Positions 1,686 through 64,000 of a DNA stretch of 64,000 bases are shown here, piece by piece (position 1 is the first letter of the stretch; every line of letters starts with the position of its first letter). This stretch comes from Octopus vulgaris (lineage: Eukaryota), in the NCBI GenBank assembly GCA_951406725.2, contig OX597819.1:9672001-9736000 (forward strand), in the 5' to 3' direction. Position numbers and translations under genes: made by a program. Below the pieces are notes generated by a model. That model was given only the letters and a program-made list of their open reading frames with translations, was not told the DNA's origin and did not search any database.

Positions 1686-1909
1686 TATATATATAATCTT
1701 ATCTTATAGCTTGTACATGTTTCAGTCATTTGATTGTGGTCATGCTGGAGCACTCCCTTGAAAGGCTTAGTCGAACGAGTCACCACCTCACCCCCCAATA
1801 CATATTTTTAAGCATTGTACCTATTCTGTCAGTTTCTTAAACCGAAATGCTAAGTCACAGGGGCGCCATGCACAAACACAAAGACACACATAGATGTATA
1901 CATAAATAT

Positions 1910-2213: not shown

Positions 2214-2380
2214 CATACATAAATATAGCATGCTATAATTGCCGAGAAAACTATCATTCATACAGGCATCTGACAGTTTTAAAGAATGAGGTTCTTTAGT
2301 TTAACCGACACGGAAAAAATTTTACGTCCGTGCGTGAATGTATATTTGTGTAGATGCGTCTGTGATTCACGCGCGCGCGT

Positions 2381-30790: not shown

Positions 30791-30897
30791 GGGCATTGAT
30801 TAAGATGGTGGCGAAGATATCTTCGTGGTGCTGATGATCATAATGAAGACTATAATCATCGTCGTCGTCGTCGTCGTCATGATTTCTTGATAACCAT

Positions 30898-38477: not shown

Positions 38478-39056
38478 GCTGGCAGAAACACGGGGCGAAA
38501 TGCTTAGAGGTATTTGCCGCTACGTTCTGAGTTCAAATTCCGCCGAGGTCGACTTTGTCTTTCATCCTTTCGGGGTCGATAAATTAAGTACCAGTTATGC
38601 ACTGGGGTCGATGTAATCGACTTAATCCCTTTGTCTGTCCTTGTTTGTCCTCTCTGTGTTTAGCCCCTTGTGGGTAGTAAAGAAATAGGTATTTCGTCAG
38701 CAGCTACGTTGTGAGTTCAAATTCCGCCGAGGTCGACTTTGTCTTTCATCCGTTCGGGGTCGATTAAATAAGTACCAGTTACGCGCTGGAGTCGATATAA
38801 TCGACTTAATCCGTTTGTCTGTCCTTGTTTGTCCCTTCTGTGTTTAGCCCCTTGTGGGTAGAAAAGAAATAGAAATAGGTATTTCGTCTGCCGTTACGTT
38901 CTGAGTTCAAATTCCGCCGAGGTCGACTTTGCCTTTCATCCTTCCGGGGTCGATAAATTAAGTACCAGTTATGCACTGGGATCGATGTAATCGACTTAAT
39001 CCCTTTGTCTGTCCTTGTTTGTCCCCTCTATGTTTAGCTCCTTGTGGGCAATAAAG
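38478..39056 (+). mobile_element. SINE family C head-to-tail trimer
   Basis: Three units of about 190 bp joined at agaaata|ggtatttcgtc. Confidence 0.85.
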
Positions 39057-41155: not shown

Positions 41156-41287
41156 ATATATATACGTGTATGTAAACATTTCATGTGTATTCGTAGCTGT
41201 GTAAGCTTTTTCGTTTGACAAATCATTATTTTTAATTTATGTATATCTCAAAACTAACGTTTATTTTCTTGTTTCAATTTTTTCCAG

Positions 41288-41902
41288 CCGTCCAAGACAT
41301 ATATGGAGTTACACCAAACGCAAGGATTTACAGACGTGCGATGGCTGGTGTGTTTGTGAGAAAGGTAGTAGGGTATAACAATGATACCAAAGAGAAAGCT
41401 GTGTCTTACCAGCTGTTTACTCAGGGGGAACTGATATATTTCATGATTAATAAACACTCTGGTGAAATCAGCACAATGACAGCTATAGACAAACCTGTTG
41501 GTCATCAGTTCGCATTAAACATACGAGCTGCTTTCAAGGGAAACACTTTTCGGGATCGTCAACTTTTAGTTGATGTTGTTGAAAACAACAAAGAAGCACC
41601 ACAATTTTCAAAATCTTTATATTATTTCTTAGTCTTTCAGTTTGAAAAACCTGGCAAGACTATCGGCTATTTAAACGCCACCGATGAATCCAAAGAAGAC
41701 TATAACAGACAGATTACTTACGAGATACAAGAGCAAAAATATCCGATTCTATCTTTAGATAAACACAGCGGTCGCCTTCGACTCAATGATACGTTACGAC
41801 TTGATCTCAAGGATATCAACATCACGGTGAAAGTATCAGATAACGGCTTACCGTCAAAGACGGCATATGCATTGGTTAAAATCAAAATTGTCGGTCTACC
41901 AG
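41288..41902 (+). CDS. Coding exon 2: two cadherin-like repeats
   Basis: Acceptor ttttttccag, donor AG|gtgagc, 615 nt, phase 1-1; motifs FMINKHSGEIST, VENNKEAPQF, IGYLNATD, SLDKHSGRLRL, VKVSDNGLPS. Confidence 0.9.
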
Positions 41903-42280
41903 GTGAGCAAACGAAACTATTCACAAAACTGTTTTCGGGAAAGTAGTGGCCACGACTCAGTTATAGCTCATTGGCTGTGCTATAACCGTCGCACTCATAT
42001 TACATACATGCACACGCACAAACATACACACACGCACACACATACACATACATACACATACACACAGATGACCTCGGGTTGGTCAGTTGAGCCATACTTT
42101 CAAATGAAACCTTTCTAATTTTAGCCCTTATCCTGAAAGATTAAGGCCCAGTTGCGGGATAGAATGAACAATTGATTTACAGATATTAATAGGAAAACGT
42201 CCCCGTCCTCTGAACCCCGTTTCTTCCTATCCTCAGTGTGTGTGTGAAATTTGTCTACATCATCAACAAAAACAAGAGAT

Positions 42281-42689
42281 TCTCTTTTACTCTTTTACTT
42301 GTTTCAGTCATTTGACTGCGGCCATGCTGGAGCACCGCCTTTAATCGAGCAACTCGACCCCGGGACTTATTCTTTTGTAAGCCCAGTACTTATTCTATCG
42401 GTCTCTTTTGCCGAACCGCTAAGTAACGGGGACATAAACACACCAGCATCGGTTGTCAAGCAATGCTAGGGGGACAAACACACTCACACAAACACACACA
42501 CGCATATATATATATATACATATATACGACGGGCTTCTTTCAGTTTCCGTCTACCAAATCCACTCACAAGGCTTTGGTCGGGCCGAGGCTATAGTAGAAG
42601 ACACTTGCCCAAGGTGCCACGCAGTGGGACTGAACCCGGAACCATATGGCTGGTCAACAAGCTACTTACCACACAGCCACTCCTGCGCC
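42281..42689 (-). mobile_element. SINE family B (intronic)
   Basis: Full-length family match. Confidence 0.85.
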
Positions 42690-43127
42690 TATTGGTCACA
42701 ATAGATGGTCACAAATAGAATGCTTTCGACTTTAATCATGGGGGCTTCTATTTTGTTTTTCGATTGTGGCTAACTTGGGGTCAAACAACAATATAAACTT
42801 CACTGCAAGCCACAACAGTACTAAGATCAGCAGCACACCACCGCCACCATTATAGCACCGTATCACCACCACCATCGCTACCAACACCACCACTCCTAAC
42901 CATACTTCTGGTACTACTAATATAATTATTAACGTTGATAAAAGTGAAGAGTGGCTTCATTTAACCACTTATCTATTAACTGAAGTGTCACTTCTCAATG
43001 TTCTCTTTATTCATCAGACATTCTACATTCTACAACTAGGAAAAAGTTGGGATGGGGTGGCATTGGGGGGTGCAGCTGTTCCGTACAAGTTCTATGGGAT
43101 ATTTCTTCGAACTCTTTCTCTCTTTAT

Positions 43128-43560
<433 letters not shown>

Positions 43561-43666
43561 CATTTTCTCTTTCTCTTCTCCTCTCTCTCTCTCTCTCGCT
43601 ATCTATCCAGCTAGCTAGATACGTACACGTATGTGTGCGTACAAAATATATACCTACACAAGATAT

Positions 43667-44472
<806 letters not shown>

Positions 44473-44857: not shown

Positions 44858-45172
44858 TGAAGGCGTATGGCTTACAATCATGAGGTAGACAGTTCGATTC
44901 CCGGACCGGGCTGCATGTTGTGTTCTTGAGCAAGACACTTTATTTCACGCTGCTCCAGTTCACTCTGCTGTAGAAATAAGTTGCGACGTGACTGGTGCCA
45001 AGCTGTATCGGCTTTACCCTTAGACAACATCAGTGACGTGGAGAGGGGAGGGTGGTACACATGGGTGAGTGGTGGTCTTCCACGAACAACCTTGCCCGGA
45101 CTTGCACCTCGAAGGGGAACTCTCCAGGTGGCAATCCCATGGTCATTCATGACCGGAAGGGGTCTTTACCCT
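44858..45172 (+). mobile_element. SINE with the 48011-type head and another tail
   Basis: B box gttcgattccc and gttcttgagcaagacactttatttcacg, then an unrelated tail. Confidence 0.7.
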
Positions 45173-45788
45173 ATATACTCGTATATATATAAATATATAC
45201 ACATGTATATATGTATGTGTGTGTGTGTATAATTTATATATGTATATATATATATATATATGCGTAATAGTATGTCTTAGTCTACTATATTAATCAGTGA
45301 GTCATATCCCGACGTTTGTTAAGTATTCGTCTCTTTCGAGAAATAGCGCCAATTAGCAAGAAGCAATTTTATTAAGTAGTTTACAAGCATTGTCTTTGCA
45401 TCGTGAGTCACCTCCTTTCACCATTTGACGAGCCTAGCTATGTCCTTCCAAAGGACCATCACTAAAGATGAAGCAACAGAAAAAAAGACAAATAATAAAA
45501 GTAAACTTAAACTAAAACCACAATACGGTTTACAAACAACTATTGCTGTTTCTTTTGGCCCCAAGGCAAGCCCCAGTGAGAAGAACTGTGACCTAAGGAG
45601 CTCCAGCCATACAGATTCCATAGTCCAGTATAATGTTGTGTTTGAGACGGTATAGCTGGCGGTGAGCTGGCAGAAACGCTAGCACGCTGGACATATGTAT
45701 GTATGTATCTATGTATATATATGCGCGTTAAGTTAAGAAACGGTGACGATTGAAAATTCTGTAAATATAAGCTTCAGCTTCAGTATAA

Positions 45789-46022
45789 GTTCCACACCTG
45801 GATGGGATGCCGATCCGTCGCAGGTGAGCTACTAGATGCAGGAGGAAGGAGTGAGAGAAAGTTGTGGCGAAAGAGTCAGCGGAAGTTCGCCATTTCCTTC
45901 TGCCCGAGCCGCGTGGAGCGTAGGTGTTTCGCTCATAAACACACGTAAGGCCCGGTCTGAGATTCGAACCCGCGATCTCTCGACTACGAGTCCGCTGCTC
46001 TAGCCACTAGACCATGTGCCTC

Positions 46023-46025
<3 letters not shown>
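45789..46025 (-). mobile_element. SINE with diverged family A head and a third tail
   Basis: tRNA-like head with similar body; different 3' part (plus strand cctggatgggatgcc...cgcagg). Confidence 0.7.
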
Positions 46026-46075
<50 letters not shown>

Positions 46076-46107
46076 CTACTTATGACATTCATACGCAATT
46101 TATAATA

Positions 46108-46151
<44 letters not shown>

Positions 46152-46385
46152 TAATAATAATATTAGGGAATAAATCCAAACTTACAGGGAAAAATTAGAT
46201 TTAGGATTAAATCCAATTTTATAGCATAAATATATTATATTTTAAATTAGAGATAAAACCACTATTAGGCAAATCAAACAGTGAAAAACATAAGCCAATA
46301 TATAAAATTAATTTAAAAATATAAAAGTTGATATATATATATATATAATTAATTAATAAGGGTGAGAGAAGTGACCATTCTCTTA

Positions 46386-46429
<44 letters not shown>

Positions 46430-46908
46430 ATTATGTACGAATGTCATAGGTAGTTATAATTAGTAATAGCATGAAGGTGACGAGCTGGTAGAATTGGTAG
46501 TACGCCGGACAATTGCTTAGCAGTATTTCTTCCAACCTTACGTTCTTTGTTCAAATGGCATTTTGGTCGACTTTAACCGTCATCCTTTCGGCGTCGATAA
46601 AATAAGTATCAGTCGATCACTGGAGTCGATGTAACTGACTTCCCCCCCCCCCACCCTTAAGATTTCTGGCCTTGAGCCAAAAATTAGAAAGAATAATTAA
46701 TATTAACATCAAAGCAGTAGGTTGTTAGAATGTCGAGTAAAATGCCTTATTATATTCATTTACGATCCTTTAAGTTCCGAGTTCAGATCCCGCTCTGGTT
46801 GACATTTTCTTTCATCCTTCCATGATATATAAAATGAAGTACCGAGGGCAATAAAATCGGTAAAACACTCTCCTATATATATGTTTGTATGGTTATATTT
46901 GTAAATGC

Positions 46909-46975
<67 letters not shown>

Positions 46976-47218
46976 AGAAAAAAGCAACAAAAATGGATCA
47001 GTATTTCGGTACAATTGTTTCATACGAAGACCAGCTTTATTAAGGCTGCAAATATTGCAGCAAATACAAGTGACTCGTACTCATCAGCCAAAAACACATC
47101 TGAGTTCTCCAAAAATCTAAGGGGGTGAGGCTACACTCATGAAACATCAGGGATAGTTCTATAAAAATCAGATTTAGATAATAAATGGACTTCCAAAGTT
47201 CTCTAATGTTGCACAGTC

Positions 47219-47263
<45 letters not shown>

Positions 47264-47489
47264 CATATATATATATTTGTGTGTATGTGTGTGGAAAAAT
47301 ATGAACTTGAATACAAGTCACTGTGTGTGTGTGTGTGTCTGTGTGTAAGTATGGTGGGGAGTCCACTTATAATCTTCTGTGTCGTAAAAATACTACTATT
47401 AAAACAAACATTAAGCGGTAATAACCGACATAGAAATATTATCTTGTGCATACATATTTCAACAACACTTCTTTTAACGTCTGTTGCAG

Positions 47490-47744
47490 AATTAGAAACC
47501 TTTTGTACAATTACGAAAGGGAAAACATCGCAGATATGCTGGCAGAACCCGGTACACAAGCTTAATTACACGTACAACATTGAAATTCGAAACGAAAAAT
47601 ACCACCATCGTAACACCGTTTCCGGTGGCACCGAACACTGCTACAATACGCCGTTGCGTGACAGTGCCAATGATTCCTATTTCTACAGAGTGCAATCTAA
47701 ATTCTTCAGTGAAATTAGTCCATACAGTCAATGGCGACGAGCAG
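47490..47744 (+). CDS. Coding exon 3: fibronectin type III-like domain
   Basis: Acceptor ctgttgcag, donor AG|gtaagt, 255 nt, phase 1-1; pattern ICWQNP...YTYNIEI...YFYRVQS...SPYS resembles FN3. Confidence 0.8.
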
Positions 47745-48010
47745 GTAAGTTGCTTTTACTTCGAACATTACACACCATTTATCAGATCTCCATTTTCTGT
47801 ATAGCTCCAGTGAATGGAAGACAAATATACGTTGTAAGAAGCTGATCTGTTTACTTAAGAAGGGAATTTGCACAATGCATTGCAAGTCAATGAAAAACTC
47901 GACAATTTCACAATACCTCTGCTTCTTACAGCGATGAAATTTATTATTTTCTTGTGCCTACTTAGAACGAACTGAGGTGAGTTGATGCGAGAGAAATATT
48001 TTGATCACCA

Positions 48011-48337
48011 AAGGAGCACTCCGTCGGTTACGACGACGAGGGTCCCAGCTGATACGATCAACGGAACAGCTTGCTCGTGATATTAACGTGCAAGTGACTG
48101 AGCAATCCATAGACACGAGTACCCTTAACGTAGTTCTCAGGGAGATTCAGCGTGACACAGAGTGTGACAAGGCCGGCCCTTTGAAATACAGGTACAACTC
48201 AATTTTGCCAGCTGAGTGGACTGGAGCAACGTGAAATAAAGTGTCTTGCTCAAGGACACAACGCATCACCGGGAATCGAACTCACGACCTTACAATCGTC
48301 AGCCGAATGCCCTAACCACTAAGCCATGCGCCTTCAC
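48011..48337 (-). mobile_element. SINE with family A tail and a different head
   Basis: Tail shared with family A; head contains gtgtccttgagcaagacactt; TSD attttgatcacca; older copy at about 44485-44790. Confidence 0.85.
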
Positions 48338-49410
48338 ATTTTGATCACCAACACAATGCAGGAGAAGAGACGAACTGCTAATCTTTCAGCTGGTTGTCCT
48401 TTTTACTAATTTGGACATCTACAAACCGAGAAAGAAACCTCGACGTGATCACTCCACTTACTAGAAATAACAGTTAAGTGTGTGTCAAATCACAACATAT
48501 TGTCTTAAAAGGTGACATTGGATAATGAAGGCAAGGATACAATATCTATGGAAAAAGAGGGAAAGGTCACGTCTAGAACGCCTTTCGATTTGAGTTGACC
48601 AACAGCAACAAGAGGCATTCAAAATCTTATTTTGTTTACTGTTTGCTTCTTTGGATCATAATTGATTTACTGTGACTTCCATAATGAAATCTTGTCATTG
48701 CTCGACTTCTCGCACATAGTGGAGTTAAAGAGTAGCAAAACGATAGTCTCTGGTGTTCCGTTCACAATCAAAATGGAAAACTAGCTGGACTTCATTTTAC
48801 CCACAGTAAGATTGTTCTTTCCATGCAGCAAACCTGACAAAATACTCAACTACACAATGATAAACCGAATGAATAATATTAACTTTTGTTGTTGTAGGCT
48901 GTTTAGTTCTCTTAAAATAGCCCGGTACTTTAAAGAATTTTAGTGATGGCAATCCAGTATTTTCAAATAGTTTTCTGAGACTGCATTATCTAATATGAAC
49001 TCTTTCACAGGTGTGATGTGAGAAGGAATTGTCTCTTATATCAAAACAGGTTGAGCAACAACTTACTAACAACCTATTTTACAGTTACGTAGACAAGGAC
49101 ATTAAAGATTAAATGTGTTTGTCAGAGAAATTTCATAAGATCTGCAGTGAAAAAAAAAACCCCATCACGAGCCAGAAATCATGCAGCTCAGTGGTTACCT
49201 TGAAGCTCTCATTAACTCCCCGTAAATGACTATTAAATAAATTATCGTAAATTAAATATTCGTTCGTCAAACAGTGCAAAAGAAACATTCTATTCTGTAT
49301 ATTATCTTTATCCATATTTAATAACCAGGGAGGCTTTCTTTTTTTAATAGTAAAATATCAATATATTATATTAATACATTATATATAACATACTATATTA
49401 ATATAATATA

Positions 49411-49805
49411 CTAGCAGTATCACCCGGCGTTGCTCGGGTTTGTAAGGGAAATAACAATATAAGCATTTTTAGAGATGTAAAGTATAATAGCCATCTCAAT
49501 ATGGCTAACCACAAAGGGGGGTGTTACTGTAGCTTTTTACGTTCTGAGATTTAATAATAAATTTTTAGAGAGTTACTTCCCTTATATATGCCAAAAATGC
49601 ATTAAAAATGGGAAAAATTTATGGTAATTTCTTTTTTAAATCGTAGACTCATCGTAGACGCGCGCTAATACCCAGAAGGGCTCGATATGAATCACGACTA
49701 TAAGATACCCGGTTTTGGTTAAACTGCACCGCAAAATGTGGGAGTAGTTAGGAATCTAAATCGTAGGAGACAGACAGCACACAACCTCTCTTTTATATAT
49801 AAAGA
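49411..49805 (-). mobile_element. Non-autonomous Helitron just upstream of the EGF exon
   Basis: Reverse complement of the family; ends about 84 nt before the exon start. Confidence 0.85.
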
Positions 49806-49888
49806 CTATATTAATACATTATATTTAAAACACTTTTATTATAATATCCATGATGCTTATATTGTTCTCTTTTCATCTTTCCTTTTAG

Positions 49889-51382
49889 TTCATATGCGCC
49901 CGGACTGTGACAAATTCGACCAATGTTTAATTCGCTCTCCATGTGCCCATGGGGGAACGTGTGTTTCGAAAGCTAATAATTTCACCTGTCACTGCACTCG
50001 AGGCTGGCGAGGCGAAACATGTGAGAATGAAGATACATGTGCTCACAAAGTCTGCTTGAACAACGGCACTTGTAAGATGACGTCCCACAACGAATTCAAG
50101 TGTAAATGTCCGGATGGATATGTTGGTGAGTTTTGCGAGTTCTCAAATCCATGCACATCTATTCCGTGCCAAAATGGCGCCGCGTGTAGAATACGTTCTA
50201 ATGCCACTTTTCAGTGCGATTGCTCTCCAGGATACTCCGGTGAAGTGTGTGACTCATTGGACCCATGTGGTTTGAAACCTTGCAAAAATGGAAAGTGTAT
50301 AGCAGTTACCGAAAAGGATTTTAAATGTCAATGTAAATCTGGTTACACTGGACCACTGTGTGATGTGTTTAATTTTTGTAGCTTACATAACCCTTGTCAT
50401 AATAATGGAACTTGTATTCCTACACAGAAAAACTCCTATAAATGCAAATGTCCAACGAAATATAGGGGTAGGAATTGTTCTTACCTCGATCCCTGTATTG
50501 CTATTAATTGTCAAAATGGAGGAACATGTCATATCAGCAATATTACAGGAAAGCATTGTTTGTGTAAACCTGGTTTTATTGGAGGAGAATGTCAAAGGAG
50601 GGATTTATGTTATCTCTTGAAACCCTGCAAAAACGGTGGAACCTGTATCATGAACGATAACGACACGTACAAGTGCCTGTGCGTGAATGGTTCTATAGGG
50701 GGCCAATGCCAGTTATGGGACCCGTGCATTTCGGCAACATGCCCGTCCAATAAATCGACAGGGTGTGTCAGGTTATCGGACATTGCATACCGATGTAAAT
50801 GTAAAGCCGGTTACACGGGGGACCTCTGTGATTTGGACGCATCTGGTTGCCAATTTTCCCCTTGCAAGAATAATGGCTCGTGTCATTTGGCATTTGACAC
50901 ACCTGCAGGTTACAAGTGCCGATGCGCAGGGGTGTATTCAGGAATCCACTGTGATGAGTGGGATCCATGTATGATAAATAGTTGTTATAATGGAGGTACC
51001 TGTTTAAAATTGAATGGTGGAAGCTATACCTGTTCATGTCCAAAGGGTTATGTAGGGAAAATGTGTGAAATAGAACTAGCCTGTCATAAAGATATTTGCT
51101 TGAACGGTGGTCAGTGTTTGGTAATTTACAAGCAACACGTATGTGTTTGTTTGGAAAACTTTACTGGTCTTTATTGTCAGGAAGAAATAACATGCCAAAA
51201 TGCAACATGTTATAATGGCGGGTTTTGTAAAAACAACGGCGTTTGTCAGTGTTTGCCAGATTTTACAGGTGAACATTGCGAAACTGTAAATCCTTGTCAT
51301 TCAAACCCGTGTCTTAACGGTGGAACTTGTCGAGGAACTACCGATGGTGGATTTAACTGTACATGCATGCTTTCCTTTGAAG
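49889..51382 (+). CDS. Coding exon 4: about 13 tandem Notch-type EGF repeats
   Basis: Acceptor ctttccttttag, donor AG|gtaaga, 1494 nt, phase 1-1; repeated C-x(4-5)-CxNGGTC...CxCxxGY/FxGxxC; the last repeat lacks its sixth Cys, implying a further exon. Confidence 0.95.
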
Positions 51383-52773
51383 GTAAGAAATTTGTTAGTA
51401 CGCTTTCCCCTTACACGCTGCTGCTTTAATCATCTCCTATCCTATTGGCTGTCAGGGGAAATTATATAACGCTTTGAGGTTCTGATTTCTTTTTTCTTCA
51501 TTTACTGGATTTCACAATAACATCGAAATGCTTTTTTTGCAAAACTAAACAGTTTTCTTCTCAATTTCTCACAAATTTACTTTTTGCGGTGCAATAATAA
51601 TTGAAATTTAATACAAATTCTAGTTATCACAAGTCATTCTACAATTTGACCCATTGCTTCGTAATCTCCTATGGTTTAGCACCTGGTATTTAGTGGTGGT
51701 ATGGAAATTTCTTTTGGAAATGTCTTTTGCTGTCAGTATTTTCCCCGTAGAAAATAGATAGCACACTATTGAGCTTATGAATTCAGCAATCATACATAAG
51801 AATATATATTTCTAGCTTTGCACTAAAATAATTTTGAATGTCATAACCCGTAGAAAGAACATTTATTCCCGATAATGAACGACCATGATTTCAGCTCACT
51901 CAGGAACTATTCAGTATCGATACAATTAAAACGATGCAGTTTCCAAAAGTTAAACCAATTATATATTAATGAAAGCTCAGAATAAATCATTTGACTGAGT
52001 AGATTTGAAAAGAGAGCACGAATGAAATTAAATTAGACGTCTTTTGTACTTCTGTTCTGTACTGCTCATCAGGCCGTCCGGGAATGCTTTCAGTAATGTT
52101 TCAGAAGTTTTCTAGCCCCTATACATAGTTAGGTGATATTTTATCCATCTGTTTGTAGATTTAGGTAAACTATTTGTGTCATCGTCTTTACATTAGTTTC
52201 CGCTTCTTTGATGTAAATAGTGCAAAAGTTAACGTTTATCTTTCTGTTTAACTACTTTTAAACCTGAAATTAATCAAACATTTATTGGTGGAGTTTAACT
52301 CCAGAATGGGCGAGTTGGGTGACTACACTAGGGAGTGTTGAGAGTGTAGAATCTAACGATTCAATCCTTGACCTTGATCTGTGAAAAATTAGGAGTAGCC
52401 CAAATACTGTAGACTAGTATTAGTTACATCCTCATTCCTCGTTATAATCCTGACTCAAAGTCACGGCATGTTTAGTCAGAACCGAAATGGGTGGTCTGTT
52501 CTAATTCCTTGAACTAAATTCAAATATTATTAACGATTATCAGGGGTATAGGATTAAATAACACTAACAGACTCGCTTCCACTGTAACTTGGTGACACAA
52601 CGTTTTGATACAGGGTCGAATAGGAGAGCAACAGAGAGTGTATGGAAGCCGTGGATGCGAGCTCAAGCGAAGCCGATTATGGCTGAAATCTCCCTGGTAT
52701 TAACAAATATTCAAATGAGACGATGGAGACTTGCTGTGGATAGTAGACACAGATCGTGATATATATATATATA

Positions 52774-53187
52774 GGCGCAGGAGTGGCTGTGTGGTAAGTA
52801 GCTTGTTTACCAACCACATGGTTCCGGGTTCAGTCCCACTGCGTGGCACCTTGGGCAAGTGTCTTCTACTATAGCCTCGGGCCGACCAAAGCCTTGTGAG
52901 TGGATTTGGTAGACGGAAACTGAAAGTAGCCTGTCGTATATATGTATGTATATATATGTGTGTGTGTGTGTGTTTGTGTGTCTGTGTTTGTCCCCCTAGC
53001 ATTGCTTGATAACAGATGCTGGTGTGTTTACGTCCCCGTCACTTAGCGGTTCGGCAAAAGAGACCGATAGAATAAGTACTGGGCTTACAAAGAATAAGTC
53101 CCGGGGTCGATTTGCTCGACTAAAAAAAGGCGGTGCTCCAGCATGGCCGCAGTCAAATGACTGAAACAAGTAAAAGAGTAAAAGAGT
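52774..53187 (+). mobile_element. SINE family B
   Basis: Full-length family match. Confidence 0.85.
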
Positions 53188-53345
53188 ATATATGACAATT
53201 AATAAGAGGAATGACCACTAAAGTGGATTCCTATACGCTAGAGATAGACGTCAAATCGCCTTACCACAAAGTGTGTGTTCTCAAAATGAATAAAAACAGC
53301 AAACGCCAAAATGTGAAAAATAAGCAAGGCAAATAAAAATTTACA

Positions 53346-53409
53346 GACTAAAACGATTTCATCATTAATACTAGCAAAATGCAAGTATGTGTAAATCCTC
53401 AGCGTAGCC
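53346..53409 (-). ncRNA. Degenerate hammerhead-like motif
   Basis: Minus strand: ggctacg-CTGAGGA...atact...agtat...GAAA-TCGT-TT-tagtc; core present, stems poorly paired. Confidence 0.3.
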
Positions 53410-53476
53410 TATCGTATCTCAAAACATATTTCACAGAACTATACACAGAAACGTTTTCCCGAAAGAAAACTCATGT

Positions 53477-53867
53477 GGAATGGAAGCACTTCGTCGGTTA
53501 CGACGACGAGGGTTCCGGTTGATCCGATCAACGGAACAGCCTGCTCGTGAAATTAACGTGTAAGTGGCTGAGCACTCCACAGACACGTGCACTCTTAACG
53601 TAGTTCTCGGGGATATTCAGCGTGACACAGAGAGTGACAAGGCCGGCCCCTTGAAATACAGGTACAACAGAAACAGGAAGTAAGAGTGAGAGAAAGTTGT
53701 GGTGAAAGAATACTGCAGGGATCACCACCATCCCTCCCGGAGCCTTGTGGAGCTTTTTAGGTGTTTTCGCTCAATAAACACTCACAACGCCCGGTCTGGG
53801 AATCGAAACCACGATCCTATGACCGCGAGTCCGCTACCCTAACCATTGGGCCATTGCGCCTCCACAG
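53477..53867 (-). mobile_element. SINE family A inserted in fold-back element 1
   Basis: Full length; TSD gaaaactcatgt. Confidence 0.9.
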
Positions 53868-54275
53868 GAAAACTCATGTACAGTTCTACAAATTATATTT
53901 GTGGTATTTTCCAAATGTCTTCATTTTGGCACGCTTGTGCCGGAAAACAACCCTGCAGATAATAAATTAGCGCAGTTACTTTACTGGTTTCAGAACATTG
54001 CTATTCTAAATTAAAACAATGAGAGTAGAGAACGCACTCTCTGTGGCAAAGCGATTTGACGTCTATTTCTAAGAGTATAGGAATCCCCGTTAGTGGTCAT
54101 TCCTCTTATGAATTGTAATATAATTTTTAAGTCTTCGGATTATTTTTGAATATGCTAGACCACTAGTTTAAATTGATGTTAATTGATTGATATCAATTTC
54201 TACCCTCATTATTTTAATATATATATGCACATATATATATATATATATACATATATATGTAAATATATATGTATA

Positions 54276-54344
<69 letters not shown>

Positions 54345-54464
54345 AAATTAGAGATAAAACCACTATTAGGCAAATCAAACAATGAAAAACATAAGCCAAT
54401 ACATAAAATTAATTTAATTTATATTATTTTAAATATATATCAAAAGTATTAAAAGTTTAATAAA

Positions 54465-54545
<81 letters not shown>

Positions 54546-54833
54546 CATACATACATACATACATACATACATACATACATACATACATGTATATATACAT
54601 ATATAATATATATGTATATATATATATATATCTATTTACATATGTATTTATATATATGTATATATGCACATGTATATGCATATATATACTGTTGTGTCTG
54701 GGGAGAGTCATTTTCTTTTTGTGCCTTATAATGTAACACACTCACCGGTAAAAATTCCACTTTTTTCTTATTTTTATAGTCCTAAAATTTTCGTTGCGTC
54801 TTGCAACCTTTTCAATAGTTTTGAGTCAAAAAG

Positions 54834-55071
54834 AAAAAATAACGAATCCACACGACTCAGATTAGCTACATACGCGTTTCGAGATTAAAGTAAAGTTATA
54901 TTTACTTACTTATTTCTCATCTTCAGCGCAGCATTTCGAAATATAAATTTGAGAGTGTTAGGATTAAATATGTACGCGATCAAAGGCCATGAGAAATAAG
55001 TAAATATAACTTTACTTTAATCTCGAAACGCCTATGTAGCTAATCTGAGTCGTGTGGATCCGTTATTTTTT
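54834..55071. mobile_element. Fold-back element 2 (about 85 bp inverted arms, carries a hammerhead)
   Basis: Arms 54834-54920 and 54989-55071 are near-perfect reverse complements; the right arm is truncated within the ribozyme core. Confidence 0.85.
54865..54932 (-). ncRNA. Type I hammerhead ribozyme (minimal, Penelope-type)
   Basis: Minus strand: gctgcg-CTGAAGA-t-gaga...tctc-GAAA-CGCG-TA-tgtagc; stems I and II pair; palindromic CGCG in stem III. Confidence 0.8.
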
Positions 55072-55225
55072 ATTTTTTCCCTACGTAAAAAAGTGCGTTG
55101 CTTTCTGGGAGATCTTACGTGCTAGTAGAAAAGGCATTTTAGCTTCTATTTCTAAATTCGGTGCGTGGTGAAGCAATTAGCTGAACCCTGATTATAATTA
55201 TGTTTATAAATATAGAATATTTGTC

Positions 55226-55293
<68 letters not shown>

Positions 55294-55411
55294 CTAGAGA
55301 GAGAGAGAGAGAGACAGAGACAGACAGATAGACAGACAGAGAGTGTGTGTGAAGGCACATGGTTCAGTATTTAGTGCGTCGAGCTTACGAACGTAAGGTT
55401 GTGAATAGAAT

Positions 55412-55489
<78 letters not shown>

Positions 55490-55495
<6 letters not shown>

Positions 55496-55929
55496 GTTTA
55501 AGAGATAGATCCACCTTCAAGCAACTCAAACAACATTGAACGACATTATCTATGATAGAGATATATAAGATTAAATTTTATCAAATTAATCTCTACATAT
55601 GTTCTTTATTTAGTAATGAATAATTATTTCGACGATTTCTAGTTGTATATTTTTGATTGTCATGTCTTTATATAGGATGTAAATAGTAAAAGAGTTTTAT
55701 ATAATCCAGACCTGAAGATTGGCAGTATAGTCGGATTGATCTATTTCAGCAATACTGATAGATATATTGTCAAGAAACGCGCGTTGTCTATATAATTTAA
55801 TATATGACTCAGAATAGTAATTGTAGTGATTAATTTTATAAAATTTAATTTTATATATCTCTATCATAGATAATGTCGTTCAATATTGTTTGAGTTGCTT
55901 GAAGGTGGTTCTGTCTCATAAACCTATCT
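55490..55929. mobile_element. Fold-back element 3 (about 108 bp arms, hammerhead in the spacer)
   Basis: Arms 55490-55597 and 55822-55929; abuts (GATA)n. Confidence 0.85.
55697..55795 (+). ncRNA. Type I hammerhead ribozyme with possible pseudoknot
   Basis: ttatat(aatcc)agac-CTGAAGA-ttggcagtat...atattgtcaa-GAAA-CGCGCG-TT-gtctatataa; 10-bp stem II; the stem I bulge aatcc is complementary to ggatt in the stem II internal loop. Confidence 0.85.
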
Positions 55930-56157
55930 GTATATATATGTATATGATACAGCGAGAAATTCGTTTTAGTACCACTAAATTGAATTTCTCTCCCCTGTGA
56001 ACTCGAAAATAACTTCTTTAATATCAATAATTATATAAATATACATATATATATACATACATATATATATATATATATACACATACACATATACATACAT
56101 ATATACATACATGTATATATACATATATATATATACATATATATGCATATATATATA

Positions 56158-56209
<52 letters not shown>

Positions 56210-56222
56210 CATATATATACAT

Positions 56223-56995
56223 ATTTAATTGAACAATGCAATCATTACATCAAATTAAAATGCAGAGCAATCTTCAGCTGCGCAAAGACATAAAATTTAA
56301 TTAAATTAGAACAGATGGATACATTAGTATAATTATACCTAACATCTCCAAGAAGTTAAGGAGATAGACAAAGAACATGCTGTTCTTACTCCAGCATAGA
56401 AGTTACTAAGCTTTTCAAGAAGATATACATTGTTACAGACTCTACTTGTCATTGAGGTTTTTTTTTTGTTTTTATAGGGTCAGTTTTAATTTATAGACTA
56501 GTTTATCAAAACCCTTCTATATCTAAGGCTGAGAGAACAGAGTGCAGTATCTGTTAGGGGTAGGGCTGAGCGAGCAGGCAGACATCATAGTTGGTATAGT
56601 TATAAAAATCAAGATTTATTAGAAGTAATATCATGAGGTTTGGTAAAGGAAAAATTAAAACAAGATGCTAGCTGACAATTAAGGGGGTCGCCCACTAGCA
56701 GACAATTGATAATGAAACAGGGGAAGTCTTATCATGTAGTACTATAGTTAAATATTTTAAACAATGTTGCTATATTGTATACAGTTAAAGTTTAGGATTA
56801 TTCAGAGGATTATGTTCTTTGTCTATCTCCTTAGCTTCTTGGAGATTTTAGGTATAATTAAACTAATGTGTCCATCTATTCTAATTTAATTAGATTCTAT
56901 GTGTTTGTGCAAGCTGAAGATTGCTCTGCATTTTAAATTCATGTAATGATTGCATTGTTCAATTAAATGGAGTTACTTGAAACGATCGTACTGCA
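56223..56995. mobile_element. Fold-back element 4 (about 156 bp arms, hammerhead at the right end)
   Basis: Arms 56223-56378 and 56812-56968; flanked by (TA)n on both sides. Confidence 0.85.
56908..56995 (+). ncRNA. Type I hammerhead ribozyme
   Basis: tgcaag-CTGAAGA-ttgctctgcattt...aaatggagttactt-GAAA-CGATCG-TA-ctgca; palindromic stem III; stem II imperfect at its base. Confidence 0.7.
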
Positions 56996-57003
56996 TTACC
57001 TCT

Positions 57004-57071
<68 letters not shown>

Positions 57072-57074
57072 GTC

Positions 57075-57466
57075 ACTCTTTACTCTTTTACTGGATTCAG
57101 TCGTTTTACTGCGGCATGCTGGAGTACCGCCTTCAGTCGAGCAAGTTGCCCCCAGGACTTATTCTTTGTAAGTCTGGTACTTATTCGATCGATCTCTTTT
57201 GTAGAACCGCTAATTTACGGGGTCGTAAACACACCAACATCGGTTGTCAAGCGATGTCGGGGGGACAAACACAGACACACAAACATATACACTCACACAT
57301 GCACATACATATATAAACATATATACGACGGGTTTCTTTCTGTTTCCCTCTACCAAATCCACTCACAAGGCATTGGTCGGTACGAGGCTATAGTAGAAGA
57401 CACTTGCCCAAAGTAGCACGCAGTGGGACCGAACCCGTGTTTGGTAAGCAAGCTACTTACCACACA
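57075..57466 (-). mobile_element. SINE family B
   Basis: Family match. Confidence 0.8.
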
Positions 57467-57511
<45 letters not shown>

Positions 57512-57951
57512 TATACATATATACATATATAAATAATACATATATATACATATATTTATGTACACATATATATACATATATATATATATATACATACATA
57601 TATATATACATATATATATACATATATATACATACATATATATATACATATATATATATACATATATATATATACATATAAATGTATATATATACATATA
57701 AATATATATATATACATATAAATATATATATATATACACACATAAATATATATACACACATCTAAATATATGTATATAAATATATATATACATATATATA
57801 TACATATATATATATATATACATATAAATATATATATGTATATACACATAAATATATATATATATACATATAAATATATATATACACATAAATATATATA
57901 CACACATCTAAATATATGTATATAAATATATATATACATATATGAATATAT

Positions 57952-57988
<37 letters not shown>

Positions 57989-58190
57989 AATATATATATA
58001 TATATATACATATAAATATATATATATATATATATATACATATAGATACACATATATACATATATATATGCTTATATATACATATATATATACGCTTATA
58101 TATATATATACACACATATATATGCTTACATATATATATACATATATATATGCTTATATATACGCATATATATATATGTATGTATGTATG

Positions 58191-58224
<34 letters not shown>

Positions 58225-58245
58225 TGTATGTATGTATGTATGTAT
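57467..58245. repeat. Long degenerate (TA)n array with an internal duplication
   Basis: cacacatctaaatatatgtatataaata recurs near 57755 and 57901. Confidence 0.9.
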
Positions 58246-58726
58246 AGGAAAATGATCTTAGCACATCTCTATTAGTTCATTGGTCTTTCAATTCTAAATT
58301 GCACTTCGTAAGACCCACACATCGGTTTTATCGGGGACGACAGAAAATATAAACAGCAATTTTTGTGCAATCATATCTTCTCTATAGTTTATTTATTAGG
58401 AATGCAGCCCTTTCTTACTGTTTTACCTCAAATCAGCTTTGTCCCATCAATCTTAAAATTAAAGGCTGTCCTGTTATGCCCATCCCATCTTTTTTCTCTA
58501 TCTAGTACTACATTCTCCAACGTATACGTTATTTTTTTAAGATGACATGAAATGATTTTAGTAGATCAAATGGCCGCGTAGAGGACCCCTTAGTTGACTC
58601 TCTGCAATATTCTGACGTCCGGGGCTTCAACACAGACATTTAAGATGCAGGTGATGACAAAGAGGTGGAACCTTGATGTTGTCATGCGACCTGTTAGAAA
58701 TAGCAGCCAATTCGTTTACAGATCAC

Positions 58727-59035
58727 GGGCAAGTGTCTTCCACTATAGCGTCGGGCCGACCAAAGCCTTGTGAGTGGATTTGGTCGGAGCCCGTCCTAAG
58801 TGAGTGTGCGTGTGGGGGGGGGGGGTATTTGTGTCTGTGTGTCCCAACCTCTCTACCGTCGCTTGACAACCGATGTTGGTGTATTCATGTCCCTGTAACT
58901 TAGCGGTTCGTCAAAAAAGACCGATAGAATAAGTACTAGACTTACAAAGAATAAGTCCTGGGGTCGATTTCTTCGACTAAAGGCCATGCTCCAGCATAGC
59001 CGCAGTCGAATGTCTGAAGCGTGTAAAAGAGTAAG
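58727..59035 (+). mobile_element. SINE family B (5'-truncated)
   Basis: Family match; other partial copies near 3755-3898, 8369-8490, 10138-10245 and 17348-17540. Confidence 0.8.
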
Positions 59036-59263
59036 AAGAAATGTACATTAGATGTAAGATGTGTCTGGTATGGCCGGAATGTCTTTGATTATGAGTTTGC
59101 TGGACAAAATAATAACTACAAAAGCGGTGCAAAAGGAAATGTTTCTAAAACGAAATAAAATTTAGCATACGTCCTCATCTCCTACCCTTTTTTTTCTTTC
59201 CGTGTTATATGACATTCCGTGTCGACGACACATCTATTCATCTTTGGATGATTATGTGGTGGT

Positions 59264-59624
59264 GGAAGCACTCCGTCGGTTACGACGATGAGGGTTCCGG
59301 ATTATCCGATCAACGGAACAGCCTGCTCGTGAAATTAACGTGTAAGTGGCTGAGCACTCCACAGACACGTGTACCCTTAACGTAGTTCTCGGGGATATTC
59401 AGCGTGACACAGAGAGTGACAAGGCCGGCCCTTTGAAATACAGGTACAACAGAAACAGGAAGTAAGAGTGAGAGAAAGTTGTGGTGAAAGAGTACAGCAG
59501 GGATCACCACCATCCCTGCCGGAGCCTCGCTCAGTAAACACTCACAACACCCGGTCTGGGAATCGAAACCGCGATCCTACGACCGCGAGTCCGCTGCCCT
59601 AACCACTGGGCCATTGCGCCTCCA
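59264..59624 (-). mobile_element. SINE family A
   Basis: Small internal deletion; TSD ttggatgattat. Confidence 0.9.
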
Positions 59625-59898
59625 TTGGATGATTATAGTAGCAAGCATTGCTAGCTACTCGCCAAACCCAACTTTATTCCGGAGAAAGGGACACCAGGTA
59701 TGGTTCCCCGTACCACTCCCACCACGGCCCGTCTCTTACGGCGCATTGTTGGCAATTCTGATAAATGATTCCAGAACGTGGTTCGTATCATATTTGTCGA
59801 TTCGATAAAGACGAAAGACAAAGGTTGGCGTTGATGGGATTTAAACACAGAGATCCAGAACAACTGCCGCGAAGCATTCTGTCCGGTGCTCAGTGAAC

Positions 59899-60236
59899 TT
59901 ACGTTGTGAGTTCAAATTCATCCTTTCATCCTTTCGTCGATAAATTAAGTACCAGTTACGCACTGGGGTCGATGTAATCGACTTAATACCTATGTCTGTC
60001 CTTGTTTGTCCCCTCTGTGTTTAGCTCCTTGTGGGTAATAAAGAAATAGAAATAGGTATTTCGTCTGTCGTTACCTTCTGAGTTCAATTTCCGCCGAGGT
60101 CGATTTGGCCTTTCATCCTCTCGGGGTCGATAAATAAAGTACCAGTTTCGCACTGGGTCGATGTAATCGACTTAATACCTTTGTCTGTCCTTGTTTGTCC
60201 CCTCTATGTTTAGCCCCTTGTGGGTAGTAAAGAAAT
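59899..60236 (+). mobile_element. SINE family C head-to-tail dimer
   Basis: Same junction agaaatagaaataggtatttcgtc as in the trimer. Confidence 0.85.
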
Positions 60237-60249
60237 ATATATATGTATG

Positions 60250-60441
60250 TTACGCGACCTACTGGTCCGTAGCTCCTTCCCTCACTTCAGCCCATTCTGG
60301 ATCCTTCCCTTGCTTCATACCCCCGTGTCACACCTGTCCATTCACCAGCAACCCCACCTCCCTCATTGGAACCAACACAATAGTAACATTCGTGACCCCT
60401 CTTGCATCTCTTCTAACATCATCTATTGCCTCAAATGTACA
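60250..60441 (+). mobile_element. Penelope-like retroelement fragment (Cys linker and start of GIY-YIG endonuclease)
   Basis: Frameshifted LRDLLVRSS / GSFPCFIPPCHTCPF / SCISSNIIYCLKC, the pattern seen before the GIY-YIG domain of PLEs. Confidence 0.75.
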
Positions 60442-60789
60442 TTTTACGACAAGGGAAAGAAATCGGTTGCTATGGTATCCGTTCCATTCTCATAGGCTTT
60501 AGCAACATAAATGCATCTGTAGTTCCTGATCTTAATTTGATCATGAATTTGGTAATAATTGTCAGCTATCGTAAATTGGTATTTACTATTCAGGTATAGC
60601 ACAGCTTGGGGGTAATTTTTAACATTTTGTCTTTTGTGACAACATAACGAGTGTAAATTATATACGAGTACATGATCATTTCAGATTAGCCCCCCCCCCC
60701 CCCCAGTTAAAAGATTACAGGAAACAGGCGTTACAGGAAATCCACTCAGCCCCATCTCCCTGAATACGACGCTAGTCTATACCTAATCA

Positions 60790-61187
60790 TCTATATATAA
60801 AAGTGAGGTTGTGTGCTGTCTGTCTCCTACGATTTAGATTCCTAACTACTCCCACATTTTGCGGTGCAGTTTAACCAAAACCGGGTATCTTATAGTCGTG
60901 ATTCATATCGAGCCCTTCTGGGTATTAGGGCGCGTCTACGATGAGTCTACGATTTACTATCATTTACTATCATTTTTTTCCATTTTAATGCATTTTTTCC
61001 GCTATTATATAAGGGAAGTAACTCTCTAAAACTGTCTACGATGAGTCAACGATTTTTTAAAAAATTTACCATCATTTTTTTCCATTTTTAATGCATTTTT
61101 TTTGCTATTTTTTTGCTATAACTCTCTAAAAATACTTATATAGTTATTTCCCTTACAAACCCGAGCAACGCCGGGCGATACTGCTAG
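60790..61187 (+). mobile_element. Non-autonomous Helitron
   Basis: A|TC...CTAG|T with hairpin. Confidence 0.85.
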
Positions 61188-61528
61188 TAGCATATACAGT
61201 AACTATGATACCTATTTCTTACATTAGGTGAGAGAAACAGCAACAATAGACACGATTGTTCCATAACTAGTTGTCTAAAATACATTAGATATTACACCAG
61301 CAATTATGAATGTTTTTCCATTTTGCTGAACATAAAATTCTGAACATAGAATTTTGAAAGATAAGCACTGTGGTTGTTTTAACCGACACCACTGTATTGT
61401 TGGCATTGAGTCTATCAGTCTGATAGGGAAGAAAATGTCAGTTCAGCTGGAATTAAAGTTGGAACAATAGGACGCTGAATTTAAAATGGCGATTCAAAGA
61501 ATCCACTTATGTGCAATATATTACGAGT

Positions 61529-61911
61529 GTGGAGGCGCAATGGCCCAGTGGTTAGGGCAGCGGACTCGCGGTCGTAGGATCGCGGTTTCGATTCCCAGAT
61601 CGGGCGTTGTGAGTGTTTATTGAGCGAAAACACCTAAAGCTCCACGAGGCTCCGGCAGGGGATGGTGGTGATCCCTGCTGTACTCTTTCACCACAACTTT
61701 CTCTCACTCTTACTTCCTGTTTCTGTTGTACCTGTATTTCAAAGGGCCGGCCTTGTCACTCTCTGTGTCACGCTGAATATCCCCGAGAACTACGTTAAGG
61801 GTACACGTGTCTGTGGAGTGCTCAGCCACTTACACGTTAATTTCACGAGCAGGCTGTTCCGTTGATCGGATCAACCGGAACCCTCGTCGTCGTAACCGAC
61901 GGAGTGCTTCC
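61529..61911 (+). mobile_element. SINE family A
   Basis: Full length; TSD tattacgagt. Confidence 0.9.
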
Positions 61912-62113
61912 TTATTACGAGTAATTATTTTGCCGTCCTCGATACGACTTGAATGCAGAAACATGAGATATATAAACAACGTAATTTTCTCCACCGAATG
62001 TCCACACTAGTCATATTTGGTTCAAATACTATACACAATGTATACAATATTGCATTCCATATATAAAAGGTCCCAGAGCGCGTACATCAACTATCATATC
62101 CTGAATGTCAATT

Positions 62114-62336
62114 ATTTACTCTTACTCTTTTACTCTTTTACTTGTTTCAGTCATTTTGACTGCGGCCATGCTGGAGCACCGCCTTTAGTCGAGCAAATCG
62201 ACCCCGGGGCTTATTCTTTTGTAAGCCCAGTACTTATTCTATCGGTCTCTTTTTGCCGAACCGCTAAGTGACGGGGACGTAAACACACCAGCATCGGTTG
62301 TTAAGCAATGCTAGGGGGACAAACACAGACACACAA

Positions 62337-62427
<91 letters not shown>

Positions 62428-62589
62428 GACAGGCTTCTTTCAGTTTCCGTCTACCAAATCCACTCACAAGGCATTGGTCGGCCCGAAACTATAGCAGAAG
62501 ACACTTGCCCAAGATGCCACGCAGTGGGACTGAACCCGCAACCGTGTGGTTGGTTAGCAAGCTACTTACCACACAGCCACTCCTGCGCC
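62114..62589 (-). mobile_element. SINE family B
   Basis: Full-length family match. Confidence 0.85.
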
Positions 62590-62666
62590 TTTGTTTATTT
62601 TAGTCGCAAAAGTCCTTTATTTTAAGGAGAAGTAAACAGTTGTTGCTTAAGACTCATTATTAATAT

Positions 62667-63071
62667 TGGTTTCAAATTTTGCCACAAGGCCAGTATTTTC
62701 GAGGGAGGAACAAGTCGATTACATCGACCTCAGTGTTCTTATTTTACAGACACCTAAAGGATGAAAGGCAAAGTCGACCTCGGTGAAATTTAAACTGTGA
62801 ACGTGAAGACGGACGAAATGCCGCTAAGCAGTTTGCCCAGCGTTGTAACGATTCTACCAGCTCGCCGCCTTAGACTGTTAATTAATATTATAGGTCCATA
62901 TAAGGCGGTGAGCTTGCAGAATCGTTAACGCAACGGGTGAGATGCTTTGTGGCATTTTGTCCCGTCTTTACAGTCTGAGTCCAAAATAAGTACCAGCTAA
63001 GTACTGGAGTCGATATATTCGACATACACCCCGCACCCGCCAAATTTTTGACCTTGTGCTAAAATCTGAAA
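62667..63071. mobile_element. Two SINE C copies head-to-head
   Basis: About 62667-62869 on minus and 62903-63071 on plus. Confidence 0.7.
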
Positions 63072-63171
63072 CGAATATTACAGGTCCATGTAGATAAAAT
63101 AGTAATTTATTGATCAGATTTCAATTTCAAACTTATCTGGGGTCAGGAATCTGTGCAATTAGAGATTATCA

Positions 63172-63471
63172 TCTTTATATATAAAAGTGAGGTTGTGTGA
63201 GTGTCTGTCTCCTACGATTTAGATTCCTAACTACTCCCACATTTTGCGGTGCAGTTTAACCAAAAGCGGGTATCTTATAGTCGTGATTCATATCGAGCCC
63301 TTCTGGGTATTAGCGCGTGTCTACGACGAGTCTACGATTTAAAAAAATTTACCATCATTTTTTCCCTTTTTTAATGCATTTTTTGCTATTATATAAGGGA
63401 AGTAACTCTCTAAAAATGCTTATATAGTTATTTCCCTTACAAACCCGAGCAACGCCGGGCGATACTGCTAG
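63172..63471 (+). mobile_element. Non-autonomous Helitron (short form)
   Basis: A|TC...CTAG|T; lacks the internal duplication. Confidence 0.85.
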
Positions 63472-64000
63472 TTATAATATAAAACACTAGGTCAATAGTT
63501 CTTATTGTTGTTAATAATGATTAGTCTCGATCGAGCACATCTTGGATCAAAAGCATTCCAGTCGTGACAATTCCTTTATTCTGTATATCTGCAACTATAT
63601 TGTCCAGTGCCCTCTCTTCTTTTTTTTAAGATATCAGGGTGTTATTCTATGAAAATTTGGCTGCTATTTCTAACGGGTGAATCGATTGCGTAGGGGATCC
63701 TCCTTTTGGCTATGGTGAGTTGTGAGAATATTGCTAAACTCCCAAGAATCCGAGAACCCTTCTCATATTCCAGTTCTATAACTAACGATTCAATACTGTT
63801 CAATGGGGTCAGCATTTCAGTACTACCGAATACAGACGAGCCCCTAGCGAGACAAGAACACGTGATTGTAGCGATTCCTCGGTTAAAGCAACTTCGCTTT
63901 ATTTATATCATTTATACTCCTAGTTAAGGGAATAATCGTCTCATAATTTCTTCTTGCCCAACTCTTATAAACTTGAGACCGTGTACGTGTCTGACTGAAT

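Follow-up and report, generated by a model that had tools for sequence, protein, structure and literature searches.

The 64-kb window analyzed here (64,000 nucleotides of Octopus vulgaris contig OX597819.1, assembly GCA_951406725.2, positions 9,672,001 to 9,736,000 of the forward strand) comes from a 2.8 Gb animal genome rich in microsatellites, and contains a tight cluster of fold-back repeats that carry hammerhead ribozyme motifs. We are confident that this cluster comprises five unrelated ribozyme-bearing repeats, of which two are the 3' ends of decayed Penelope-like elements (PLEs) with a reverse transcriptase (RT) followed by a GIY-YIG endonuclease (EN) and three are non-coding, and that they were likely inserted serially by Hydra-type Penelope enzymes into microsatellite-rich DNA. 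The cluster is real and largely as first noted from the sequence, and it is of a known kind, i.e., Hydra-type Penelope-like ends together with non-autonomous ribozyme-bearing passengers.

Four of the elements (E1 to E4) are short inverted repeats, each with an outward-reading hammerhead motif, and a fifth (E5) lies between E1 and E2 (Table 1). Arms pair at 53189-53281/54029-54122 in E1 (87% identity), at 55511-55597/55822-55908 in E3 (95%), and at 56225-56378/56812-56966 in E4 (92%); E2 spans about 54828-55077 in a head-to-head arrangement, with ~125 nt per arm. Sequence common to the different families is limited to (TA)n and short chance matches. As the first-pass annotation had anticipated, several families are involved. 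Each element is multi-copy and represents its own family, with first-look searches of the genome returning 1414 candidates for E1, 1658 for E2 with E5, 478 for E3, and 2409 for E4 (40 scored each time). The 391-bp insert within E1, presumably a short interspersed nuclear element (SINE), has 95% matches in two other loci (L084 and L092).

Table 1. Elements of the cluster and their hammerhead motifs, in window coordinates; offsets (+) are counted from the predicted ribozyme cut.
Feature	Position	Strand	Description
E1 long arm	53189..54028	-	most of one 531-nt non-coding monomer; ends at first fixed 3' end (+176); SINE-like insert inside
E1 hammerhead core CTGAGGA	53396..53402	-	copy lacks 17 nt (stem III and cut site); predicted inactive
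SINE-like repeat, 391 bp	53477..53867		later insert in E1 between copies of a 12-bp target duplication (53465-53476, 53868-53879)
E1 short inverted arm	54029..54218	+	5'-truncated; has ~100-nt tail (second fixed 3' end); adjoins (TA)n
E5	54688..54836	-	tail-less arm of ~200-nt family; meets E2 left arm at TTTTG overlap
E5 minimal type I hammerhead	54782..54818	-	U3-A8 core TTGAAAA 54815-54809; 5-bp stem II; AAUU stem III; 3-bp stem I; predicted cut 54785/54784
E2 left arm	54832..54990	-	intact hammerhead, core 54926-54920, predicted cut 54871/54870; broken off at +47 on meeting E5
E2 right arm	54994..55224	+	begins inside stem II, without 5' half of core; ends at first fixed 3' end (+191)
E3 short inverted arm	55498..55597	-	first fixed 3' end (+162) against (GATA)n
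E3 long arm	55600..56032	+	pseudo-long terminal repeat (pLTR) and 85-nt tail of RT + GIY-YIG element; ends +247 against (TA)n
E3 hammerhead	55708..55789	+	core 55712-55718; predicted cut 55785/55786; intact by descriptor
E4 long arm	56225..56811	-	end of 3' untranslated region (UTR) and pLTR of RT + GIY-YIG element; cut off inside ribozyme stem II
E4 short arm	56812..57009	+	core 56914-56920, palindrome, predicted cut 56990/56991; stem I and stem II foot mutated

We evaluated the ribozymes from their cores, their folds, and their conservation across genomic copies, using the standard numbering of hammerhead positions. Cores of the form CTGA(A/G)GA occur at 53402 (-), 54926 (-), 55712 (+), and 56914 (+), with a partial core at 56277 (-), and core positions and strands agree with the earlier statement that all ribozymes read outward from the junction of the arms. 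A strict type I descriptor, which requires a stem I of 4 bp or more, the core, a stem II of 3 bp or more, GAAA, the palindrome, and UH, found three matches in the window, i.e., E2 (54926, -), E3 (55712, +), and a motif at 47087 (-), vs one in 100 dinucleotide-shuffled windows, and the minimum-energy structures of E2 and E3 have stems I and II formed. While three full cores and one degenerate core had originally been described, only E2 and E3 are intact: a 17-nt deletion has removed stem III and the cut site from E1, and the E4 copy retains its core letters but fails the descriptor because stem I carries an additional base and the stem II foot is altered at two positions. Across alignments of 20-26 arms for each of E1 to E4, the complete ribozyme is present in the majority of each family, with stem sequences and stem III palindromes that differ between families, and all five families have the conserved core (C3-G8 or U3-A8) and a palindromic helix III. 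The assignment to type I hammerheads with palindromic stem III thus holds among genomic copies. Dimer cleavage of hammerheads was reportedly described by Lunse et al. 2017; the palindromic stem III of these families predicts cleavage as a dimer only, and isolated, partly decayed copies are therefore likely inert.

These ribozymes depart from the minimal form under which they had been annotated, which fits E5 alone since the stem II regions of the other families measure at least 33 nt (33-73 nt across E1 to E4). E1 (main subfamily), E3, and E4 mostly display U.U in place of the canonical G10.1-C11.1 pair; E2 has the G10.1-C11.1 pair and an extra base after A9, yet a long helix II, and the combination of a short helix II with both of these features is found only in E5. 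Minimal hammerheads of metazoan PLEs, including a U3-A8 variant, were described by Cervera and de la Pena 2014 (PMC4209133), and they share with the present families a conserved core, a short helix I, a palindromic helix III, and opposite-strand motifs 100-700 bp apart. E5 resembles the published variant in its U3-A8 core and extra base after A9, whereas E1 to E4 differ from the minimal form in their long stem II regions; the U.U substitution is as in axolotl HHR_Amex2 (PMC7229834).

Further hammerheads were observed outside the cluster. A sixth motif in the window (46990-47100, -), intact by descriptor and with a long stem II, is of the same family as the pLTRs on either side of a Hydra-type EN in locus L082. 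Around a dozen additional families with palindromic stem III, many with a long stem II, were found in the flanks of loci L003-L156 and in random stretches, and overlapping loci include a possible G3-C8 core variant.

The initial count of four ribozyme elements captured the four fold-backs and missed E5. The E5 hammerhead sits ~10 nt from the element start, its minimum-energy fold gives the expected shape, and 0 of 5000 shuffles match it. The family is ~200 nt long, with 16 of 33 arms beginning within the first 9 bases and none extending upstream, 3' ends that cluster at 140-147 and 202-205, and many two-armed copies. The TTTTG overlap at which E5 meets the E2 left arm would be explained both by a template switch in one insertion and by a later insertion with deletion.

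On sequence evidence, E3 and E4 derive from coding elements, each being the 3' portion of a decayed RT + GIY-YIG element that is truncated at its 5' side, and not a separate non-coding derivative. In locus L081, the order is (GATA)n, inverted E3 pLTR, truncated RT, GIY-YIG, ~1 kb of 3' UTR, E3 pLTR, tail, and (TA)n, and other E3 copies reach variable lengths into the same 3' UTR. Locus L086 has a similar layout for E4 with a 3' UTR of ~3 kb, and L088 confirms the EN link. Both L081 and L086 encode an RT and then an EN in frames broken by stops and frameshifts, and their RT stretches match the full-length 759-aa protein P0001 at 50% and 39% (E 5e-48 and 4e-80), respectively. The Penelope-like origin proposed at the outset is supported. 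The suggested linkage to RT/GIY-YIG open reading frames (ORFs) is found for E3 and E4, and no coding partner was found for E1 and E2 at 25 loci each. Accordingly, the label of non-coding derivatives is retained for E1, E2, and probably E5, and withdrawn for E3 and E4, which are collinear upstream with decayed RT + GIY-YIG frames (L081 for E3; L086 and L088 for E4). The EN of L004/L082 was also considered as an E3 partner and rejected, as it belongs to the family of the 47087 hammerhead. Pfam returned no family for the L081 RT piece or for P0001 and only a sub-threshold GIY-YIG match for L082, a PDB sequence search gave no match, and a homologue search with the L082 EN gave none. The ~3-kb 3' UTR of E4 (L085-L088) contains diverged internal repeats at about 430/870-nt spacing and 70-75% identity.

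The coding partners of E3 and E4 show what appear, from motif likeness judged by eye, to be Hydra-clade features. This group of C-terminal EN+ PLEs targets (TA)n and includes Hydra-1_Obim, from an octopus (Craig et al. 2021, PMC8557442). The clade marks given in section 11 of that paper are a DKG motif changed to DKT, a CxCX5C motif, a CxxC before the conserved E, and no CCHH. Translations of L081, L086, and L088 have the CxCX5C linker and the CxxC before the conserved E, with no CCHH in the EN; L086 has ADKT and P0001 has SDKT, while L081 is truncated before the motif. For the N-terminal RWK region, L081 and L086 are 5'-truncated before it and the homologue P0001 has RWR. Both the hammerhead in the pLTR and insertion at (TA)n are seen for the E3 and E4 elements, which further resemble the clade in the order of RT and GIY-YIG, in 5' truncation with an inverted copy, and in a tail at one end only (PMC8557442). 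Unlike Hydra-clade elements, they are decayed and have long 3' UTRs (~1 kb, and ~3 kb with internal repeats), a long stem II, and tails of 85-100+ nt, and the hammerhead of Hydra-1_Obim (File S2, PMC8557442) differs from theirs in sequence. Element length also exceeds the <3 kb that is typical of the clade, though not strict (PMC8557442), with 3.4 kb in the truncated copy of L081 and ~5.8 kb in L086 without its later insert.

Next, we analyzed where the arms of each family end. Searches used the sequence immediately past the cut, and each arm was counted once; the copies are the best-scoring ones rather than a random sample. In E1, 22 of 55 arms end at +176 and 19 at +272-279 (41/55 at either); in E2, 35 of 83 end at ~+191 and 17 at +305-314 (52/83); and in E3, 24 of 54 end at +162 and 20 at +247 (44/54). 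For E4, 9 of 24 arms end at +38, and a longer tailed form is also seen. Most arms adjoin a microsatellite (48/55 for E1, 64/83 for E2, and 43/54 for E3, of which 34, 30, and 17, respectively, adjoin TA runs), in line with the microsatellite-flanked ends originally described; the inverted truncated second arm described alongside them is likewise seen among family copies and in L081. Both arms stop at a fixed end in 26 of 50 two-armed insertions, and 23 of these 26 pair a short with a tailed arm, the remainder being two short-short and one tailed-tailed (P = 4e-5 against 0.5). Of the window copies, E1 and E3 follow this short-plus-tailed rule, E5 interrupts E2, and both arms of E4 stop early. 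Folding of seven tails gave z-scores from -4.3 (E3 window copy) to +0.5 (E5), and no common motif was recognised. Hairpins were observed between the two fixed 3' ends in the tails of E1 to E4, with z-scores of -3.0 and -4.3 for E3 and a UUCG loop just after +176 in E1.

At their other end, ~96% of copies read through the predicted cut site. Copies beginning within 3 nt of the cut numbered 10 of 171, vs 4.5 expected (P = 0.016), an excess that we do not claim: with three rows dropped (one starting at +4, one local duplicate, and one internal deletion) it becomes 7/168 (~P = 0.16 by hand), which is not significant relative to the average rate of truncation. Bins of 5' ends located 28-39 nt upstream of the cut were equally high.

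These patterns suggest a mechanism in which the GIY-YIG domain would cut both strands in or near (TA)n, and the RT would prime from each cut strand, with copying initiated at one of two internal RNA sites 3' of the ribozyme and each cut strand primed at a different one. The two partial cDNAs would then be joined 5' to 5' at their truncated ends into a fold-back with both arms reading outward, which would explain why the ribozyme always reads outward. The template would mostly be uncut at the ribozyme, or re-ligated, given that almost every copy extends across the cut site. The arm-end pattern is consistent with in vitro work on a Penelope-like enzyme that has two RT start sites, the protein of the Anolis Poseidon element PAc. 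This protein cuts and extends both strands and starts at two internal RNA sites that bound the tail, with no need for ribozyme cleavage (Frangieh et al. 2024, PMC11167929). PAc and the octopus families would share two fixed RT start points downstream of a hammerhead, AT-rich targets, and an uncut RNA template. They differ in that PAc belongs to a different clade and is known from biochemistry, whereas the octopus families are known from genomic footprints alone. The short-plus-tailed pairing was counted in this analysis and is absent from the parts of PMC11167929 examined.

Several observations weigh against this interpretation. At least one arm lies off the fixed ends in 24 of the 50 two-armed insertions, the E4 window copy stops at neither fixed end, tails of 60-120 nt are longer than the published 30-40 bp, and target-site duplications were not discerned. 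No intact ORF was found for any family; E1, E2, and E5 could be tied to no enzyme, the RT/EN fragments near some of their copies being unrelated neighbours; the link between E3 and an RT comes from one locus (L081); and the Hydra-clade placement was made from motifs. Finally, the search with hammerhead models that had been proposed as a check matched none of the Rfam hammerheads (E up to 10) over 45000-64000 or over 54830-54960, these scans returning microsatellite-driven miRNA matches only. The long stem II and U.U features probably account for the Rfam miss.

The alternative that survives best, and that would refine rather than replace the explanation above, is that E1 and E2 are true retrozymes, with dimer-assisted cleavage, circularised monomers, and a Penelope-type RT running round the circle and thereby producing copies longer than one unit. 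We regard this as plausible while leaning against it. Searches with the upstream-most parts of E1 and E2 (25 loci each, of 40-odd matches) found no copy that runs on into an ORF or other shared sequence (0/25 and 0/25 loci). Longer copies instead run into their own tail in a head-to-tail arrangement, with a period of 531 nt for E1 (L104) and about 554-564 nt for E2, and the longest frames without a stop measure 84 and 48 codons, respectively. Such a layout would be expected either of a PLE without its ORF or of a retrozyme. RT/EN fragments next to E1 and E2 copies (L097, L098, L099, L102, and L106) were considered as partners and rejected, because other repeats intervene, the orientation is wrong, or the fragment is not common to different loci. 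The retrozyme model was proposed in PMC4209133 and PMC7229834, and metazoan retrozymes without long terminal repeats (non-LTR; PMC7229834; bioRxiv 10.64898/2026.07.22.740005) share with E1 and E2 a non-coding, low-GC unit arranged head to tail, a single type I hammerhead per unit, and a host genome that contains PLEs. In its favor are also the head-to-tail permutation itself (periods of 531 and about 555-564 nt), arms longer than one monomer (9/83 for E2 and 2/55 for E1, the longest 990 nt), and one locus with two consecutive units (L096). However, both cores of L096 are mutated, partial tandems are normal in Penelope-like elements, and no array with two intact ribozymes was found among the E1 and E2 loci examined, a sample rather than the whole genome. 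Unlike the published retrozymes, E1 and E2 mostly occur as two-armed copies of <1.5 units, with no intact-ribozyme multi-unit array among these loci, and their monomers, known here from DNA copies, are larger than the 170-400 nt circles.

RNA runs of a relative showed no abundant E1 or E2 monomer. In three raw runs, coverage of E2 was patchy and came from both directions: the half upstream of the cut had a depth of 0-5 vs 50-80 downstream, ends did not accumulate at the cut, and 70% of reads continued into unlike sequence. E1 gave the same picture in two runs. About 6% of each run was covered, and libraries of this kind could miss circles. For the window stretch, no RNA data set was listed as containing it. 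An RNA joint at the E2 cut site was considered as a sign of cleavage and rejected, as it matches a genomic inversion junction, L169 (G000:C14:22852645-22855756), where an E2 copy has its 5' end at the predicted cut site. The L169 junction is present both in RNA reads of the relative and in a deep contig of run X1, and likely sits in an expressed transcript that occurs in more than one species. Separately, a young two-armed array in a random stretch (L343:2097-4768, G000:C1) comprises 353-360-nt monomers at 97-99% identity with seven intact compact hammerheads and a GUC cut site, and would be a much better retrozyme candidate than the window elements.

A broader extension of the serial-insertion reading is more doubtful still, and we offer it only tentatively. 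The families may record Penelope insertion as such, with one complex priming two strands at two fixed RNA sites, and the same Hydra-type enzyme carrying coding elements, ribozyme circles of 530-560 nt, and a 200-nt mini-element, and switching between them as at the E5-E2 join; the few per cent of copies that start at the cut would then be evidence for cleavage in vivo.

We also asked whether the cluster is a hotspot, as first described, by comparison to 60 evenly spaced 10-kb stretches (600 kb), which contained 49 fold-back rows representing ~44 elements (one per 14 kb). A strict hammerhead was present at 8 separate loci. The local excess is real, since four fold-backs lie within 3.8 kb vs 0.28 expected, but the total of five in the 64-kb window equals the background number, and a similar pile, in which two of four fold-back elements within 5.6 kb have hammerhead cores, was found in 1 of the 60 random stretches (L389:2258-7833, G000:C3). 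A hand Poisson estimate puts the chance of such a pile at ~2e-4 per stretch, with ~150 piles expected in 2.8 Gb. The (TA)n content of the cluster is in the top tenth, and repeated insertion at microsatellites is enough to explain the pile. Among the L389 elements are a perfect 76-bp fold-back whose two arms each have a hammerhead core, and a subfamily related to E1 (72%).

The + strand upstream of the cluster has a cadherin exon at 41236-41943 and a long exon encoding EGF repeats, with an open frame at 49723-51426; the two are probably part of one cadherin-EGF gene. The EGF-repeat exon ends at a GT donor near 51385, and the cluster is therefore probably intronic. This position, together with the local excess of fold-backs, could suggest a selected hotspot of functional ribozymes or double-stranded RNA that regulates the upstream + strand gene. 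We consider this very improbable: two of the five ribozymes are broken, that of E3 is the only intact one on the sense strand, all of them need a dimer partner, and the chance expectation, the comparable L389, and the (TA)n content already noted also weigh against it. Least likely of all are miniature inverted-repeat or foldback DNA transposons with incidental hammerhead motifs, a view that would suit the long inverted arms and TA-rich targets but not arm lengths that vary from copy to copy, a second arm in only about half of loci (15, 17, and 11 of 30), ragged 5' ends, or a full ribozyme fold kept per family with different stem sequences, and that is refuted for E3 and E4 by their collinearity with RT + GIY-YIG in L081 and L086.

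Elsewhere in the window, a GAG-rich degenerate repeat at 30147-30800 is open on the + strand for 218 codons of Glu/Asp, and a 190-bp unit, apparently a short interspersed repeat, is present in 2.9 tandem copies at 38515-39048. Larger inverted pairs at 1279-3099, 42279-44063, and 59264-61911 are common short repeats in opposite orientation.

The octopus repeat annotation (PMC13282606) lists Penelope-like families, and its main text is without the word "ribozyme"; our literature search, which did not extend to subscription journals or to Repbase/Dfam, found no paper on the present families or on the arm-pairing count. The locus itself amounts to common transposon debris and illustrates that ribozymes of this type go unrecognised by Rfam. 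Cleavage assays would find ready substrates in the long-stem, U.U-closed, and U3-A8 variants. As to cutting in vivo, most templates appear uncut, and the small excess of starts at the cut is suggestive only. Overall, the pairing of short and tailed arms in 23 of 26 insertions provides a figure that any mechanism for the inverted ends and one-sided tails of PLEs would have to reproduce.

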